Source: an uncultured Gammaproteobacteria bacterium (lineage in GTDB: Bacteria > Patescibacteriota > Patescibacteriia > UBA2591 > CAYTBZ01). Taken from it: a stretch of 64,000 nt of DNA. The notes beneath the pieces are model-generated. The model worked only from the letters and a program-made list of their open reading frames with translations. It was not told where the DNA came from and searched no databases. The DNA is taken from assembly GCA_964436275.1 (NCBI GenBank), contig CAYTBZ010000001.1:33980-97979 (forward strand), in the 5' to 3' direction. How positions within the stretch are numbered: the first letter of the stretch is position 1; each line of letters opens with the position of its first letter. Shown in pieces: positions 1,950 to 55,300 of this stretch. The translations under genes were made by a program, and so were the position numbers.

Positions 1950-3063
1950 TTTCTTTCTTCTTTTCTTTCAAAGTATTTTCCAAAGAATTTATTTCTGGAA
2001 ATCTCTCTAAGAAGAATTTTCTTAATTCTTCAATTTGGGTAGAAAATAATAATCCTTCTATTGCCCATTCTCTTTCTATTCCGGCGATTTCTTTTAACAA
2101 TTTCTGACATTTTTTTAAAAATTTAAATGTTTCAGAAATTGGAAAAGTAATTTTTTTCCTATACTCATCCCCTTCTTTCTGAAGAATTTTATTCTTAGAA
2201 AGATATTCAGCAACTTGATATAATTTTGCTTCACTTAGACGAGAATAATGAGCAATTTTTTCTATCTCTTCTTGGAGAAGGACAGCGCTTAGAGAACCCT
2301 TGTCTAACAAAAAGAAAATTTTATCCATAAAAATTTTTCTTGCATTACCAAATTGGACAATTTTTTGGAAAAGTTCAATGTCTCTCTCTTTTTTGATAAC
2401 AAAAATTCTCTCAATTTCCTCTCCTTTTTGTTTTTTTTCTTGAATCTTTTTGTTGATTTGTTTCTTTTCTTGTTTTTTTAAGGAAGAAAAGAGTTTTTTA
2501 AAAGATAAAAAACTTTGATAGGTCTGCCGGATGAAAGGATTTTTTGGTTCTATTTCTAATGCCTTTTTAAACCACTTCTCCGCTTCATCAAGATTGAAAT
2601 CAGAAGTAAAAATATAACTAGCCGCTAAATCATTATAAATTAAGGAATTTTTAGGATTTATTTTCAGTGCTTTTCTAAGTAATCTGCGTCCTTCACTCAC
2701 CTTTCCTGAAAGACAACTCACCCATCCCAAATTTCTTATTATTTCATCATCATTGGGCTTTAACTTATAAGCCCTTTTTAAATATTTTAACCCTTCTTTA
2801 AATTGTAAATTCTTGGCATAAGCTACACCTAAAAGAAAATTAGCAGTCACTCTTTTAGGAGCTAATTTAGTTGCCCAAATCAGAGGAGGAATTGCCTTAG
2901 TTATTTTTCCTAAAGTTAAATAAATATTTCCTAAAATTTCATAATTCCGAACATTTTTCGGTGACTCTTTAATTTCTTTCTCAATCAGTTTAATAGCTTT
3001 CTCTTTCTTTCCCTGAAAAAACAAGTCAAGAACTTCTTTATCTTTTTTATTCAATTTCATCAT
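1942..3063 (-). CDS. TPR-repeat protein
   Basis: Multiple 34-aa TPR-like repeats (..LG..Y...G....A...LKRAYKLKPND..). 8-bp overlap with trkH. Confidence 0.6.
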   Translation of the reverse strand: MMKLNKKDKEVLDLFFQGKKEKAIKLIEKEIKESPKNVRNYEILGNIYLTLGKITKAIPPLIWATKLAPKRVTANFLLGVAYAKNLQFKEGLKYLKRAYKLKPNDDEIIRNLGWVSCLSGKVSEGRRLLRKALKINPKNSLIYNDLAASYIFTSDFNLDEAEKWFKKALEIEPKNPFIRQTYQSFLSFKKLFSSLKKQEKKQINKKIQEKKQKGEEIERIFVIKKERDIELFQKIVQFGNARKIFMDKIFFLLDKGSLSAVLLQEEIEKIAHYSRLSEAKLYQVAEYLSKNKILQKEGDEYRKKITFPISETFKFLKKCQKLLKEIAGIEREWAIEGLLFSTQIEELRKFFLERFPEINSLENTLKEKKKENV

Positions 3064-28695: not shown

Positions 28696-29979
28696 TTATC
28701 TCCAACCTTTACCCTGACGAACTAATAACTCCCTTGCCTTCTCCGGATAAGCCATTAATTCTTTAACTATCTTTTCCATTCTCATACGTTGAGAGCCCTT
28801 GACTAAAATAACATCTCCGGACTGAATGATATTTTTTAAAAATTTAGCCGCATCATCACTTTGAAAAAAATGAAAAATTTTTTCTAAAGGCATCCCCTGC
28901 TTTCTTGCTCCTTCAATAATATTTTTAGCATTTTCTCCTACTGCTACTAAATAATCCGGGTCTAAAGAAGCAACCTTTTCTCCAACTTCAAAATGGGCTT
29001 TTGTAGAATAACTTCCTAATTCTAACATATCACCCAGAACAACGAATTTTCTTCCTTTTGAAGGTATCTTTTTCAACACATCCAAAGCCATTATCACGGC
29101 TAAAGGAGAAGCATTATAAGAATCATCAATGATAAGAGTCCTCTTTACTCCAGCAATTAATCTCATTCTTCCCGGTGGCGGATTATATTCTTTCAAGGAT
29201 TCAACAATTTCTATTAAATTCATTTTTAAAGACAAACCTACGCCAATAGCAGCTAAGGCTGCATAGGTCTGCTGTTTGCCTAAAACATATGGTAAAAATA
29301 CAGGAATAATTTTACCTTTATAGTTGATTTTAAAACGTACGCCAATTAACTCTTTACTCTCTAAAACCCCAAAGTCATTCTCCCAATCAAAAGCCATGAT
29401 ATCTGCTCGAGAAGAAAAACCATAAGTTAAAACCTTAGCATCTGTTTTATCTTTCATCTGATAAACCTTTTCATCATCAGCATTTAAAACAGCCTGACCT
29501 GAGGAAGGCAAACATTTAACTAAAACGCTCTTTTCTTGAGCAATATTCTCTAATGATTTAAAAAATTCCAAATGGACTGGCGCCACAGCAGTAACTACAC
29601 TAATTCTAGGAGGAGCAAAAGAAACCAAATATTCTAAATCACCTGGTCGATCAGCGGCCATTTCTAAAATCAAAATTTGCGGATAATTTTTTAGAGGAAA
29701 TAAAATTAATTTTTTTGCTTGCCATAAAATTTTTAACCAGCCAAAAAGAGATTTCCCGGCTGATTCAACACCTATTATCGTCAAGGGTAAACCAATTTCG
29801 TTATTATAATTCTTTTCGCTCTTTCTTACAGAAAATCTGTTTTTTAGAACAGAAAAAATTGCTTCTTTAGTTGACGTCTTTCCAACACTCCCAGTAATTC
29901 CAATAATCAATGGTTTATATTTTTTTACAATTAATTTTGCTAAAACTTTTAAAAATTTTTGGATAATTTTTTTCATCAT
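28696..29979 (-). CDS. murF: Mur ligase, UDP-MurNAc-tripeptide--D-Ala-D-Ala ligase-like
   Basis: IGITGSVGKTSTKE Mur-ligase P-loop, central and C-terminal Mur domains. Last gene of the dcw cluster. Confidence 0.7.
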   Translation of the reverse strand: MMKKIIQKFLKVLAKLIVKKYKPLIIGITGSVGKTSTKEAIFSVLKNRFSVRKSEKNYNNEIGLPLTIIGVESAGKSLFGWLKILWQAKKLILFPLKNYPQILILEMAADRPGDLEYLVSFAPPRISVVTAVAPVHLEFFKSLENIAQEKSVLVKCLPSSGQAVLNADDEKVYQMKDKTDAKVLTYGFSSRADIMAFDWENDFGVLESKELIGVRFKINYKGKIIPVFLPYVLGKQQTYAALAAIGVGLSLKMNLIEIVESLKEYNPPPGRMRLIAGVKRTLIIDDSYNASPLAVIMALDVLKKIPSKGRKFVVLGDMLELGSYSTKAHFEVGEKVASLDPDYLVAVGENAKNIIEGARKQGMPLEKIFHFFQSDDAAKFLKNIIQSGDVILVKGSQRMRMEKIVKELMAYPEKARELLVRQGKGWR

Positions 29980-29986
29980 TTAAAAG

Positions 29987-31831
29987 TTATCTTTCTGGAG
30001 GAATTTTTTTATAATCTAAAATAAACTTGGCTATCCTACTAAAAATCGGCGTGGCTGAATCAGCAGCAAATCTTACTGCCCGAGGGTAATCTAATTTTAC
30101 CAAAATAGTAAATTGAGGATTATCTATTGGTCCAAAGCCACAAAAAGAATGAATCGTCTTATTGGGTAAATATCCCCTTCTTTCAGGATTAGAAACTAAA
30201 GCCGTTCCTGTCTTACCAGCAAGATAATACCCCTTTACTCTGGCTTTTTTCCCATATCCATTCTCTACCACAGAAACGAGCATTGCTCCTAAGGTTGAAG
30301 CAGTTTGAGAGGAGATAACCTGAGAAAGAACCTTAGGTTTGTTTTCTTCAATAATCTTTTGCTTATTTTTATCAATAATTTTTTCGACTAAATAAGGCCT
30401 CATCATTTTGCCCTGATTAGCAATGGCAGAAAAGGCAACTATTAATTGAAGAGGGGTAACACTAATTCCCTGACCAAAAGAGGCGGTAGCTGTATAAATA
30501 TCCCCTCTTTTCTTTAAAGAACTGATATCCCCCCTTGCTTCTCCCGGTAATTCAATCCCCGTTTTTTTGCCAAAACCAAATTTTTCTACGTATTTTTTAA
30601 AAATTTTTTTCCCCGTCTTTTGCACAGCAAAGATGGCTCCAGTATTTAGAGATTCCTCTAAAACTTGGGTCATTGTCTTTTTACCGTGGGCTTTTAAATC
30701 AGCATTCTTGATTGTATACTTGCCAATCTTTACCTCTCCTTTATCTTCATAAGTAGTAGTTGGAGTTAGTTTATTAGTGTCTAAAGCGGCAGCAAAGGTA
30801 ATTGCTTTAAAGACCGAACCAGGCTCGTAAGTATAAGAGACAGCTGGATTAAGAAATAAATTAATATTCTCTACTTTATTATATTCATTAGGATCAAAGT
30901 CAGGATAATTGCAAAGAGCCAAAATGGCTCCGGTCTGGGGATTCATCACAATAACTGTTCCGCTATCAGCACCGTATTTTTTTATCCCCTTTTTTAATTC
31001 TGAACAAGCAAAAAATTGAATAGGATAATCTAAGGTAAGAATAATGTCCTTGCCATCTTCCGCTTTTCTTTTAATTTCAGTAGAAATGGGTATAAACCTT
31101 CCTAAAGCATCTCTTTCCCCAACAATTAATCCTTCTTGCCCACGAAGAATTTCATCAAAATACTCTTCTATTCCATACTGCCCCACTTTTTTATCTCCTT
31201 TATAGCCAGTAAAACCTAAGATATGGCTAAATAAATCTTTATCTGGATAATAACGCGCTGGCTCAGGAAGGAAACCAATTGCTTTTTCTTTCTCTGATGA
31301 ATTCTTTCCTTTTTTAACCTTAATATCAAGTTTTTTAATCTCTTCAACCTTTTTAGATTCAACAAAGTGTTTTATTGGTTCATAAGGATCATTCTCTTTA
31401 GATAATCGCTGTAAAAGAGTATCATAAGGGACATCTAAAAGTTCGGAAAGTTTTTTTGCTGTCTCTTCAGGATCAACAATAAGTTTGGGAACAGCATAGA
31501 CCAAATATAAATCTCGATTAGTGGCTATTAAATGAAGACCGTTAGGACTTTCTGGGTCTTGAACGAAAATCTCCCCTCTTTTTGGTTCTATCGTCTTTGT
31601 AGCCCTTCTTATTTTTAATGCTTGGAGGTGATAGGTTTTATAATTCAAGACCTGAAGCTGAAAAAGCCGACCAGCAATTAAGACCCCTAAAAGAAAAAAG
31701 AAAACCGCTAAAAAAGTAATTCTTCCGGTTTTCTTTTCTCTCTTTCTTGTCCTTTTTATTCTAAACATAATGGAAGGACAAATTATCTTTAAATCATCTC
31801 TGAGCAACAGTAGAAGGAATAGGCGAAACAA
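29987..31831 (-). CDS. ftsI: Penicillin-binding protein, FtsI-like transpeptidase
   Basis: N-terminal TM, PBP dimer domain, SVFK / SxN / KTGT motifs. Follows ftsL. Confidence 0.8.
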   Translation of the reverse strand: MFRLFLLLLLRDDLKIICPSIMFRIKRTRKREKKTGRITFLAVFFFLLGVLIAGRLFQLQVLNYKTYHLQALKIRRATKTIEPKRGEIFVQDPESPNGLHLIATNRDLYLVYAVPKLIVDPEETAKKLSELLDVPYDTLLQRLSKENDPYEPIKHFVESKKVEEIKKLDIKVKKGKNSSEKEKAIGFLPEPARYYPDKDLFSHILGFTGYKGDKKVGQYGIEEYFDEILRGQEGLIVGERDALGRFIPISTEIKRKAEDGKDIILTLDYPIQFFACSELKKGIKKYGADSGTVIVMNPQTGAILALCNYPDFDPNEYNKVENINLFLNPAVSYTYEPGSVFKAITFAAALDTNKLTPTTTYEDKGEVKIGKYTIKNADLKAHGKKTMTQVLEESLNTGAIFAVQKTGKKIFKKYVEKFGFGKKTGIELPGEARGDISSLKKRGDIYTATASFGQGISVTPLQLIVAFSAIANQGKMMRPYLVEKIIDKNKQKIIEENKPKVLSQVISSQTASTLGAMLVSVVENGYGKKARVKGYYLAGKTGTALVSNPERRGYLPNKTIHSFCGFGPIDNPQFTILVKLDYPRAVRFAADSATPIFSRIAKFILDYKKIPPER

Positions 31832-32192
31832 AATCTTTTTGGCTAATTTTAACTAAATTTAATCTTTGGGAAACTCTTTTTAAATTCTCAATTGATTGAA
31901 GTTGGGTTACTTTTAATTCTAATTCTTTATTAATATCCGCCAACTTACTAATCTGTTTATCTAATTCTTTTGACTTAAAAGTCAAAATAGTAAGATTGTT
32001 TATTGAAAAAAGATAAAAGAAGAGAGCTAATATCACAAAAATAAAGAGACAGTATTTTATCTTCTTAGCTTCACTTAAATACTTTATAAACGATTTTAAA
32101 GATCCTCTTTTCCTTCGAGCGAAAAAGTGATAATGGTAACGACGAGATAAAATGTTTGAATAAGCCATATTTTTAAAATTAATTATATTCAT
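31794..32192 (-). CDS. ftsL: FtsL-like small bitopic cell-division protein
   Basis: 132 aa, single TM then coiled coil. Position between rsmH and ftsI. Confidence 0.5.
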   Translation of the reverse strand: MNIINFKNMAYSNILSRRYHYHFFARRKRGSLKSFIKYLSEAKKIKYCLFIFVILALFFYLFSINNLTILTFKSKELDKQISKLADINKELELKVTQLQSIENLKRVSQRLNLVKISQKDFVSPIPSTVAQR

Positions 32193-33076
32193 ATTTTTTC
32201 AGCTACTCTCATTTTTGCGCTTCGAGCCCGAATATTTATTTCTATTTCTTCCTCAGAAGGACGTACTGGTTTTTTGGTAATTATTTTTAATTTATCCTGA
32301 TTGTCTAGAAAAAAATTCTTCACTATTCTATCCTCTAAAGAATGAAAAGAAATGACGATTATTCTTCCTTTTGGTTTTAAAAGTTCTACTGCCTGAGGAA
32401 TGGCTTTTTTTAAATTCTCTAATTCTTGATTAACTACAATACGTAATGCCTGAAACACCTTAGTTGCTGGATGAATTTTCCCTCTCCTCTTACCCTTCTT
32501 TTGATAGACCTTAACAATCAAATTAGCCAATTCTTTTGTGCTTTTTATTTTTTTCCTTTTTCTTTGTTGACAAATTTCTTGAGCAATTTCCCTGCTTAAT
32601 TTCTCTTCGCCATATCGCCTAAAGATGCTGGACAATTCATTTTCTGACCATTGGTTTATTATTTCTTCTGCTTTTAAGCCCTTTCCAGAAAGACGCATAT
32701 CTAACTCTGCTTCTTGAGAGAAAGAAAACCCTAACCACCCAGTTTTAATTTGGTCCAATGATAAACCCAGGTCAAATAAAATACCACTAATTGGAAGATT
32801 TGGAATTTGCTCATTGACTATTTTTTTTAAATTTACAAAATTATCTTGAACTAAAATAATTCTATCGCTAAATTCTTTTAACCTCTCCCGGCTTAGTTGA
32901 AGCGCCTTTTTATCAAGGTCAATAGCCAACAACTTTCCTTGGGGAGAAGTCCTCTTAAGAATTTCATAGGCATGTCCGCCTCCTCCTAAAGTACAATCTA
33001 TGAAATTTTCATTGCTCTTCGGTCTAAAAAATTTAATAACCTCTTTTAAAAGAACTGGCCGATGTAAAATTCCCAT
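32189..33076 (-). CDS. rsmH: 16S rRNA m4C1402 methyltransferase RsmH (MraW)
   Basis: HRPVLLKEV...FIDCTLGGGGHA SAM-binding motif. Confidence 0.9.
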   Translation of the reverse strand: MGILHRPVLLKEVIKFFRPKSNENFIDCTLGGGGHAYEILKRTSPQGKLLAIDLDKKALQLSRERLKEFSDRIILVQDNFVNLKKIVNEQIPNLPISGILFDLGLSLDQIKTGWLGFSFSQEAELDMRLSGKGLKAEEIINQWSENELSSIFRRYGEEKLSREIAQEICQQRKRKKIKSTKELANLIVKVYQKKGKRRGKIHPATKVFQALRIVVNQELENLKKAIPQAVELLKPKGRIIVISFHSLEDRIVKNFFLDNQDKLKIITKKPVRPSEEEIEINIRARSAKMRVAEKI

Positions 33077-33081
33077 ATTTT

Positions 33082-33513
33082 TTATACTCCTAACTCCCCT
33101 AATGCTTCAGCAATATCACTGCTGCTTTTTTCTGTATTTGATTTATATTTCTCCCAACTTTCTTCATCCCAAATTTCTAATCGGTTAAAAAGTCCGGCAA
33201 TCACTACTTTTTTCTTCAAACTAGCATATTTTCTTAAATAATCAGGTAGGATTATCCGACCCTGCTTATCTATTTGGACATTCATTGCTCCAGCGAGCAT
33301 CAGACGAGAAAATGCCCGAGTATTGGCCTTACTAATTGGAAGTTTAACTAATTTATCAGCCAGTTTTTTCCATTCTTCAACTGGGTATAAAAACAAACAA
33401 TTATCCAGTCCCCGAGTTACTACTGCTCCCCTGCTTAATTTCTGACGAAATTTAACTGGAATAAAGAGACGTCCTTTTTGATCAATGGTATGATGGAATT
33501 CTCCAATAAACAT
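33082..33513 (-). CDS. mraZ: Transcriptional regulator MraZ (start likely ATG at 33511-33513; ORF track extends to GTG at 33531)
   Basis: MFIGEFHHTIDQKGRLFIPVKFR... duplicated DxxxR MraZ/SpoVT-AbrB motifs. Confidence 0.85.
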   Translation of the reverse strand: MFIGEFHHTIDQKGRLFIPVKFRQKLSRGAVVTRGLDNCLFLYPVEEWKKLADKLVKLPISKANTRAFSRLMLAGAMNVQIDKQGRIILPDYLRKYASLKKKVVIAGLFNRLEIWDEESWEKYKSNTEKSSSDIAEALGELGV

Positions 33514-33523
33514 ATTAATAAAG

Positions 33524-33630
33524 TTATCCACAATTCTTTTGACTTATCCCCACATTTATCCACAATTATCCACAACTAATATAAGTATACACCATTTTCC
33601 CCCACCAAACAACTATCAAGCTGTGGATAA
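33524..33630 (-). promoter_or_regulatory. Cluster of perfect TTATCCACA 9-mers (DnaA-box identical), likely MraZ operator
   Basis: Plus-strand TTATCCACA at 33524-33532, 33556-33564, 33566-33574, inverted at 33622-33630, degenerate TTATCCCCACA at 33545-33555. On the coding strand three GTGGA/GTGGG direct repeats fall at exact 10-bp phase. Confidence 0.6.
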
Positions 33631-33713
33631 CTTTTTAGAGAAATTTAATAATAAAAAAAGACGGATTTTCACCCTCTTTTTTACTTCTAAATCCGTCCCT
33701 TTAATAAATTCTT

Positions 33714-34145
33714 TTATCTTTCATAATAAGCCAACTCTCCGTAAAAGGGAAAAACGAATTTTGGTTGTTTTTTATTTTTAATTTTTTGATATTTTTTAAA
33801 AGCAATTTTGGCTAATTCCTGAAAATCATTAAACTCTTTTTGTCTAAATCCTAAAGCAGGAATTTTTAAGACAAAAGCAAAGGCATTCGCTACAGCACAG
33901 CCAGTTTTTAGAGAAGTATAAGAACCAGGTCCTTTCACAACAAAAAGCCCGGCTAATTCTGCCGGCTTAATTTTATTTTTTTCCAATAATTCATCAATGG
34001 CAAAAAGTAATTTCTCTGAATGCTTTTTTACACCTTTTCTAAAAACTGAATGGGAAATTAAACAATCGTTCTTAGCTAATCCGATAATTATTTTATCTCG
34101 TTGGGTTGTCTGAATTATTAGAAAAACATCTTTCTTTTTCTTCAT
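33714..34145 (-). CDS. tsaB: tRNA t6A biosynthesis protein TsaB-like (short)
   Basis: IIGLAKNDCL..., VVKGPGSYTSLKTGCAVANAFA (YeaZ/TsaB signature). 143 aa. Confidence 0.6.
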   Translation of the reverse strand: MKKKKDVFLIIQTTQRDKIIIGLAKNDCLISHSVFRKGVKKHSEKLLFAIDELLEKNKIKPAELAGLFVVKGPGSYTSLKTGCAVANAFAFVLKIPALGFRQKEFNDFQELAKIAFKKYQKIKNKKQPKFVFPFYGELAYYER

Positions 34146-54920: not shown

Positions 54921-54936
54921 AAAAATTATTAAAGAT

Positions 54937-55300
54937 GGTTAAGCAGACCTATAAGCCGAGTTCTGTACTCCAAAAAGGAGCGACGGCTATTTATCTGGAC
55001 CGGTTATTACTAACCGGCTCTAACGACCTACCAAAATTTGGTCTTTCACCCGGGTAAGGATTTAGCCGTTTCACCTCGGTTTTTTGACCTCTTTTATAAC
55101 CGAGCTCAGCCTGATTAATAAGAAGAGGTCCAGGCTGCCCTTAGATTACTCCTTGGGCGTCTCTGTTCGCACCTCTATCCCGCTAAAAGCGGGACGACGG
55201 GTGTTACCCGCTACCCTTTTTCTCTTCTTAAAGAAGAGAGAGTGCTCGGACTTTCCTCTCTGTCTGATTAAGACAGAGCAGCCGTCCGGTCTGCTTAACC
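54937..55300 (-). ncRNA. rnpB: RNase P RNA (bacterial type A)
   Basis: Minus strand reads 5'-GGUUAAGCAGACC...GAGAGGAAAGUCCGAGCACUCUC (P4 5' strand)...ACAGAACUCGGCUUAUAGGUCUGCUUAACC-3' (P4 3' strand, P1 closing). GC-rich island. The overlapping plus ORF is spurious. Confidence 0.8.

Follow-up and report, generated by a model that had tools for sequence, protein, structure and literature searches.

A predicted MraZ autorepression operator made of DnaA-box-like repeats at the division operon promoter of a Patescibacteria genome

The window, a 64-kb stretch of DNA in which nearly all genes lie on the minus strand and for which the closest proteins come exclusively from Patescibacteria, carries a dcw-type cluster, mraZ-rsmH-ftsL-PBP-mur, assigned from Pfam domains and gene order. 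Its first gene is mraZ (33082..33513, minus strand, 143 aa; Pfam PF02381 MraZ, E 1.7e-44), the product of which is also a member of the NCBIfam equivalog TIGR00242 (159.8 bits vs a cutoff of 98.35). The ATG at 33513 was taken as the start codon on the ground that almost every homologue is, like this protein (MFIGEF...), 143 aa long and begins with MFIGE. An earlier note on this DNA had described repeats directly upstream of mraZ, which is where they lie, but the start is not the GTG at 33531. The genes that follow on the same strand encode RsmH (MraW; 32189..33076), an FtsL/DivIC-like protein (31794-32192), a class B PBP transpeptidase (29987-31831) and a Mur ligase (28696-29979), all assigned by Pfam, and together with mraZ they make up the operon that the candidate operator would control. 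The upstream neighbour is a short tsaB-like gene (33714..34145, minus strand) with a Pfam TsaD-family domain and a score of 71.2 bits against the NCBIfam TsaB equivalog cutoff of 69.3. On its 3′ side, a terminator-like hairpin (33647..33702, minus strand; 14-bp stem, -13.9 kcal/mol, z = -2.1) with a UUUUUUU run behind it marks the boundary of the mraZ promoter region. No phage similarity of the region was found, and Rfam searches gave no RNA family in the operator region or in the leaders of relatives. The only Rfam family reaching its gathering score in the window is RNase P RNA class A, at 54936-55297 on the minus strand (125 bits).

Upstream of mraZ, the 9-mer TTATCCACA occurs in four perfect copies, at 33524-33532, 33556-33564 and 33566-33574 on the plus strand and at 33622-33630 on the minus strand, with a degenerate copy, TTATCCCCACA, at 33544-33554. 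All four perfect copies match the DnaA-box consensus TTWTNCACA, as used in PMC7561715. They are the only ones in the 64 kb, where 0.29 would be expected, and none of 100 shuffles reached four. When up to one mismatch to TTATCCACA is allowed, the window contains 29 sites vs 15 expected, and their sole cluster is the mraZ upstream region. The description in the earlier note, of three same-orientation and one inverted perfect 9-mers with a degenerate copy within ~110 bp, is accurate, as is its statement that this is not chance.

Read on the mraZ strand, the region has the form TTATCCACA (33630-33622)...TTGTGGATAA TTGTGGATAA ATGTGGGGATAA G-N11-TGTGGATAA-N10-ATG. The GTGG motifs begin at 33573, 33563 and 33553 and so keep an exact period of 10 bp, which agrees with the GTGGA/GTGGA/GTGGG series noted earlier, and a fourth starts at 33531, 22 bp on. 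Tandem box 1 (33566..33574), TGTGGATAA (GTGGATAATT), and tandem box 2 (33556..33564), TGTGGATAA (GTGGATAAAT), are both perfect 9-mers and form identical 10-mers (TTGTGGATAA). Tandem box 3 (33544..33554) reads TGTGGGGATAA (GTGGGGATAA). The array occupies the region 31-62 nt upstream of the mraZ ATG, and the distal box (33524..33532), again a perfect 9-mer, TGTGGATAA(C), lies 11-19 nt upstream and ends 10 nt before the ATG. A further isolated box, at 33622..33630 on the minus strand, is a perfect 9-mer inverted with respect to the tandem array; with its flanks (33620-33630) it reads GTTATCCACAG.

A promoter, TTGTTT-17-TATACT, is predicted between this inverted box and the array, because it is located at conserved -35 and -10 blocks of related loci. 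The predicted -35 (TTGTTT, 33607..33612, minus strand) aligns with a conserved GGTTGAC, and the predicted -10 (TATACT, 33584..33589, minus strand, within ATGGTGTATACT), 17 nt downstream, aligns with a (G)TGGTGTA(T/A)AAT block that has invariant G and A columns. After the hairpin, the mraZ strand can be written as AAAAGTTATCCACAGC-TTGATAG-TTGTTT-(17 nt)-TATACT-TATATTAGT-TGTGGATAAT-TGTGGATAAA-TGTGGGGATAAG-TCAAAAGAAT-TGTGGATAAC-TTTATTAAT-ATG. Box 1 starts ~10 nt after the -10 and should cover the transcription start, which is predicted to lie near 33577. The four GTGG boxes thus lie downstream of the predicted promoter and 11-62 nt upstream of the ATG, and we consider positions 33520-33635 to be most likely the promoter-operator of the mraZ-rsmH-ftsL-PBP (dcw/mra) operon.

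Known MraZ operators comprise three or four GTG(G/T) boxes with 6-nt spacers, with the transcription start inside box 1, and mutation of the boxes causes a stepwise loss of MraZ binding and repression (PMC12957436). In the window we see at least three GTG(G/T) direct repeats with a 10-bp period and 6-nt spacers, which is the same arrangement. The pattern GTGG-N6-GTGG gives two overlapping matches in the 64 kb, all at the operator, where 0.12 would be expected, and shuffled sequences never reached the observed count. Base contacts are made by MraZ residues K13, R15 and R86, which are positioned by D11 and D82, and in the structures the base-specific contacts are essentially confined to GTG(G/T) (PMC12957436). 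An alignment made here with M. genitalium MraZ, gapless over this part, shows D11, K13, R15, D82 and R86 all present in the window protein, and both DXXXR motifs (D11-Q-K13-G-R15 and D82-K-Q-G-R86) correspond residue for residue, 1:1, with the solved M. genitalium protein. MraZ is unusually conserved across Patescibacteria classes (Kerfeldbacteria, Nomurabacteria, Kuenenbacteria; window 33082-33513, proteins P0004-P0120), with 73-82% identity, whereas Patescibacteria DnaA is only ~50-65% identical between lineages.

The M. genitalium operator, for which cryo-EM structures are available (PMC12957436), resembles that of the window in having four boxes and an MraZ with the contact residues K13, R15 and R86. 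Its transcription start lies in or at box 1, and the same position is predicted in the window. The M. genitalium MraZ ring oligomer binds cooperatively and tolerates a longer spacer between boxes (PMC12957436), which would be a further likeness. The two differ in that Mycoplasma boxes read AAAGTGT-N3 in an uninterrupted 10-bp array, whereas the window has three tandem boxes, a 12-nt gap and then the fourth box.

For E. coli K-12, the sequence upstream of mraZ, read here, is TTGACA-17-TAAACT-TCCTTTCA-GTGGGAAATT-GTGGGGCAAA-GTGGGAATAA-14 nt-ATG. This Pmra operator is said to be bound by MraZ, as Eraso et al. reportedly found in 2014. Pmra and, by prediction, the window share a sigma-70 promoter, three GTGG(G) boxes that begin within ~10 nt of it and lie exactly 10 bp apart, A/T-rich spacers (GTGGGAATAA in Pmra, GTGGGGATAA in the window) and a gene for an autoregulatory repressor immediately downstream of the operator. 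The equivalence to the E. coli MraZ operator that the earlier note had drawn is borne out by this common promoter-then-phased-GTGG layout. In the window, however, ATAA is the fixed spacer, giving boxes of the form (T)GTGGATAA, and there is a fourth box at +22 together with an inverted box upstream of the -35. The E. coli cra-mraZ intergenic region also contains a TTTTCCACA, which fits TTWTNCACA, at NC_000913.3 89390-89398 (L084 41-49), 236 nt upstream of the mraZ start. This may be a chance occurrence, for which the estimated expectation is ~2%.

To place the operator in its phylum, 80 mraZ loci from different Patescibacteria genomes were compared with the window, giving 81 loci. At least one GTGG-N6-GTGG is present on the coding strand within 450 nt upstream of mraZ in 66/81. 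We count 93 matches in the 35 kb upstream of mraZ vs 10 in 854 kb elsewhere in the 81 loci, or 2.66 vs 0.012 per kb, a ~220-fold enrichment. The operator is conserved at orthologous loci and is the sole one in the 64-kb window. The earlier note had looked to related genomes for phased repeats upstream of mraZ, and these 66 loci have them. Relatives were aligned by anchoring on the last GTGG-N6-GTGG pair upstream of mraZ. The promoter half of this alignment reads GGTTGAC (-35), ~17 nt, (G)TGGTGTAWAAT (-10), and is followed by ~18 nt with a degenerate GGGTGAAAA or GTGGTnAAAA in the place of box 1, GTGGATAAAA, GTGGGGATAA, a 12-nt gap and (T)GTGGATAA(C/G). Relatives have AAGTGGATAAAA in the place of box 2, and box 3 is the box most conserved among them. 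In the 66 anchored loci, box B (the second box of the pair) is mostly GTGGGG, with G at position 4 in 51 and at position 5 in 56. Other clades (Magasanikbacteria-like loci and others) have GTGGGGAAAA GTGGGGAAAA or GTGGTGAAAA GTGGGGAATT at the position of these boxes. An unbiased 8-mer enrichment gave AAAAGTGG (52 loci), AGTGGGGA (51) and GTGGATAA (49) as the top words.

These data leave a negligible probability that the repeats arose by chance or by a recent local duplication without function. The identity of boxes 1 and 2 would in principle fit a recent tandem duplication, but the observed counts of both the 9-mer and GTGG-N6-GTGG were never reached in shuffle tests, and an identical architecture is found in distantly related Patescibacteria classes, a conservation that already contradicts the chance reading.

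Some relatives have leaders with features of their own. Loci L050, L055, L056, L058, L065, L067 and L073 have no GTGG operator near mraZ (160 nt upstream) and share a long hairpin-like element, TTAAGGCAAAGAAGGGGTCTGAT...ATCAGACTTCTCC...GTCTTAA, in which a purine-rich arm pairs with a CUCC-rich arm; no Rfam family matches this element. In L055, L078 and L079 the operator is found another 235-377 nt upstream, and some lineages therefore have a long structured leader. The closest related locus, L001 (~2840-2990), with an MraZ 80% identical to that of the window, has its operator 184 nt from the ATG and several CACAGATAA-like repeats (AATCACAGATAG, TTTACAGATAAAC, CTCACAGATAAAT) in its leader. A conserved element of ~35 nt, ATAGCCGAATAAAAACCGAARGTCAAT, occurs at L003 2598-2619, L005 2632-2653 and L022 2666-2687, with similar sequences in L004 and L014 (~260-295). 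It lies 275-360 nt upstream of mraZ, but 2.7 kb upstream in L014, and 8-9 nt from an isolated perfect TTATCCACA(G) of variable orientation. Its reverse complement resembles TTGAC-17-TATA; it is absent from the window and has no match in Rfam. In L022, tsaB and mraZ are separated by an inserted lexA-like gene (1958-2575, minus strand), and a second perfect TTATCCACAG (1047-1055), followed by GTGGGG, abuts a promoter-like TTGACA-17-TATAGAAT directly after tsaB. L012 and L027 have a perfect box ~13 nt after TTGATA/TTGTCA-17-TATAAT, roughly 1.9 kb upstream of mraZ. The sites in L022, L012 and L027 hint at further promoters with a box.

We consider it probable that the repeats are an MraZ autorepression operator at the dcw promoter of a Patescibacteria (CPR) genome. 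This reading is well supported because the layout is E. coli-like, the operator is conserved in the 66 loci and the MraZ contact residues are intact. The sequence anatomy, its uniqueness in the window, the phylum-wide conservation, the match with the E. coli arrangement and the presence of the contact residues were all computed here, and from them we infer the transcription start, the binding of MraZ and the sign of regulation. The three phased GTGG boxes that begin ~10 nt after the sigma-70-type promoter, with the fourth 22 bp further, would act as MraZ-binding repeats, each taking one subunit of the MraZ ring oligomer via the K13/R15/R86 cradle. Cooperative occupancy of boxes 1-3 and the distal box would extend over the transcription start and the early transcribed region and would block RNA polymerase, so that MraZ would repress its own operon by negative autoregulation. 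In B. subtilis, the triple GTGG repeat occurs at Pmra only and is needed for repression (bioRxiv 10.1101/2022.02.09.479790). The sign of regulation in the window is uncertain because MraZ of M. gallisepticum, when overexpressed, was reported to be an activator (PMC12957436). The operator type is already well known; what we describe is its apparent occurrence in a phylum about which little is known, where it has an extended box specific to the lineage, GTGGATAA, along with isolated accessory boxes.

Two points speak against an MraZ operator as the full account. The conserved ATAA, and the T and C flanks of the isolated boxes, are not explained by contacts to GTG(G/T) only. In addition, the isolated boxes upstream of the promoter can face either way, and some variants (TGTTGATAA) have no GTG core. 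The two isolated boxes that flank the array in the window (33524-33532 and 33622-33630) belong to a conserved class, and could be either auxiliary MraZ sites of high affinity or genuine DnaA boxes.

That the sites are also DnaA boxes, and that DnaA co-regulates the operon, was the further suggestion of the earlier note. Under this reading at least some of the perfect 9-mers, and most of all the isolated pair that flanks the array, would be real DnaA boxes. By binding them, DnaA would adjust dcw expression to the state of replication, either on its own or in competition with MraZ. It is compatible with an MraZ operator, and we regard it as possible, though with distinctly less than even probability. 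For the tandem boxes the comparison with relatives is unfavourable. GTGG is preceded by A in 47 and 52 of the 66 loci and by T in just 10 and 11, and relatives mostly have AGTGGATAA and GTGGGGATAA/TGGGGATAA, in which the invariant A9 or A7 of TTATCCACA is broken. Mismatches in the tandem boxes are confined to A9 and A7, with four single exceptions at positions 7 and 8. This is the variation that a GTGG-reading protein, not DnaA, would conserve. Perfect 9-mers within 300 nt upstream of mraZ are found in no copy in 49/81 loci and in one copy in 26, and the four in the window are the maximum. The full DnaA-box identity of the tandem array is therefore particular to the window genome, and it is local because a T precedes GTGG here while relatives mostly have A. 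As a result, every GTGGATAA-type box of the window genome doubles as a complete DnaA 9-mer. The window does have its four perfect 9-mers, as the earlier note stated, but the DnaA-box identity does not extend to the tandem boxes of relatives.

The isolated boxes behave differently. In the zone -300 to -60 upstream of the operator, we count 26 perfect 9-mers vs 0.17 expected, a ~150-fold enrichment. In ten relatives one lies immediately before the -35, direct in five and inverted in the other five, and the window box at 33622-33630 belongs to this group; a further 16, mostly inverted, lie 90-300 nt further upstream. One-mismatch variants concentrate at W and N of TTWTNCACA (13 and 8, vs ~0.6 expected each) and include TTATCAACA, which has no GTG core, six times vs 0.5 expected. 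None of these variants has its mismatch at T4 or C8, and a single copy has it at T2. This spectrum resembles that of the boxes beside Patescibacteria dnaA and differs from that of the tandem boxes. Most Magasanikbacteria-type loci, with tandem GTGGGGAAAA and no ATAA, nevertheless have a TGTGGATAAC-type box upstream of the -35 that is perfect or nearly so. The window upstream box with its flanks, GTTATCCACAG, is an identical 11-mer to E. coli oriC R1 and R4. On the other side, most isolated-box variants (GTGT, GTGGAAAA) would also be acceptable as MraZ boxes, and isolated sites would need a near-optimal sequence to bind MraZ without cooperativity. The place of the distal box, at +20/+21 from the anchor box, is filled in 31/66 relatives, by 13 perfect and 18 one-mismatch copies, all direct; its rigid +22 spacing to the MraZ boxes, and an A for the critical T in 10/26 copies, fit a fourth MraZ box. 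In short, the DnaA-critical positions are not kept at the tandem boxes of relatives and are largely kept at the isolated flanking boxes, mostly as MraZ-compatible variants. The isolated-box pattern is compatible with a second reader of the 9-10-mer, for which DnaA is the obvious candidate. An extra G flank on isolated boxes (TTATCCACAG), tried as a DnaA signature, was too weak at 8/26 by hand count. A few relatives (L003, L007) have trio-like TAGTAG runs in the stretch from the -10 to the boxes; these were judged a coincidence, being neither general nor present in the window.

Patescibacteria dnaA genes provide a direct comparison for these boxes. Low-GC dnaA genes were retrieved from metagenomes by a degenerate Walker-A pattern. 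Exact look-ups of the DnaA proteins identified L188 as a Harrisonbacteria locus and L173 and L181 as Patescibacteria, while similarity of neighbouring proteins to Patescibacteria loci was uninformative for classifying the metagenomic dnaA loci. Five more loci on long contigs (L205-L209) were found via homologues of the Harrisonbacteria DnaA. All eight have canonical TTnTCCACA boxes upstream of dnaA and in the dnaA-dnaN spacer; these loci are from other Patescibacteria classes than the window organism, which weakens the comparison. Tandem pairs or triples with 11-bp spacing lie just upstream of the dnaA -35, for example TTATCCACAG-GTAATCAACAG, and another such array upstream of dnaA reads TAGTCCACA-AG-TAATCCACA-AC-TTATACACA. 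In L205-L209 (5/5), jag-yidC-rnpA(-rpmH) diverges from dnaA-dnaN, and the dnaA-dnaN spacer of these five of the eight loci has one or two boxes, then a patch rich in C, then CTACTAC(CAC) runs that resemble DnaA-trios. This spacer is the probable oriC of L205-L209. The spacers of L173, L181 and L188 contain boxes and no CTACTAC runs. From the canonical boxes at dnaA it follows that the TTATCCACA family is in use in Patescibacteria, and DnaA could therefore in principle recognise the boxes at mraZ. In the reverse direction, no MraZ-type tandem repeats were found near Patescibacteria dnaA.

The same comparison bears on whether the cluster might be a replication origin, or a datA-like reservoir that mainly titrates DnaA. 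Like the box clusters of oriC and dnaA promoters, it has perfect TTATCCACA copies head-to-tail, and its four perfect boxes in 107 bp are about the chance total for a 1-Mb genome of the same composition, a sizeable sink if DnaA binds. Against this, GC skew is negative throughout the window with no switch, and neither dnaA nor dnaN is present across the window (tblastn for dnaA) or over the next 10 kb past its right end; dnaA is likewise absent from all 80 related mraZ loci. Origins in Patescibacteria differ from this locus, with rpmH-rnpA-yidC-jag / dnaA-dnaN synteny and with boxes and CTACTAC trio-like runs in the dnaA-dnaN spacer, and boxes in their dnaA promoters are 11 bp apart, compared with 10 in the window array. 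The cluster sits inside a promoter, has no DUE element and varies in its number of perfect boxes among relatives. An oriC was rejected, there being no skew switch, no nearby dnaA and no trio run beside the boxes, and a main role as origin or reservoir is altogether improbable.

DnaA control of the mraZ-ftsL promoter is not a new idea. According to PMC2533591 and PMC8203912, which cite Goranov 2005, DnaA binds and represses the yllB(mraZ)-ftsL promoter of B. subtilis; PMC8203912 also reports DnaA at the ftsL promoter by ChIP. The proposal of DnaA acting on the mra promoter is mentioned in the B. subtilis MraZ paper (bioRxiv 10.1101/2022.02.09.479790). B. subtilis Pmra (yllB/mraZ-ftsL) combines GTGG-repeat control with reported DnaA binding and negative regulation, which is the dual control proposed for the window. 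The B. subtilis repeats, GTGG[A/T]G-N4, are not DnaA boxes themselves, whereas tandem boxes 1 and 2 of the window also read as perfect DnaA 9-mers. A precedent for shared base pairs is the E. coli mioC promoter, where, according to PMC4446571 citing Eraso 2014, MraZ is said to bind a site that overlaps a DnaA box; that site adjoins oriC and not mraZ, and the cross-talk runs from MraZ to a DnaA target. In the literature searched, we found no paper joining MraZ and Patescibacteria, and none linking DnaA boxes to mraZ beyond this mioC remark.

Overall, the MraZ operator put forward in the earlier note is strongly supported, and the DnaA co-regulation that it raised is only partly supported, with the 49 loci that have no perfect 9-mer on one side and the conserved isolated boxes on the other. 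We judge a DnaA link to be plausible, with precedent, and unsupported for the tandem boxes. A stronger version, in which the Patescibacteria dcw promoter is a shared MraZ/DnaA switch where initiator and repressor compete or cooperate on the same base pairs, seems unlikely, and clearly more so than DnaA co-regulation as such. In that case the MraZ box may have converged on the DnaA box (GTGGATAA lies inside TGTGGATAA), with perfect boxes kept upstream of the -35 and at +22. With its four perfect boxes, close to the chance total of a 1-Mb genome, the operator of the window genome could also act as a DnaA sink.

Patescibacteria are mostly uncultured, and their gene regulation is almost unstudied. 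With the predicted MraZ operator, their division operon gains a specific promoter-operator model that spans the phylum and, following the Mycoplasma example, can be put to the test in vitro or with E. coli reporters. Should the flanking boxes not be DnaA sites, Patescibacteria MraZ would read a longer motif (GTGGATAA) than the GTG(G/T) core of the structures. If they are DnaA sites, DnaA control of the mraZ-ftsL promoter as in B. subtilis would extend to a very distant lineage, which would point to an old and direct link between replication initiation and division. A shared switch, if true, would couple replication initiation to the expression of division genes.
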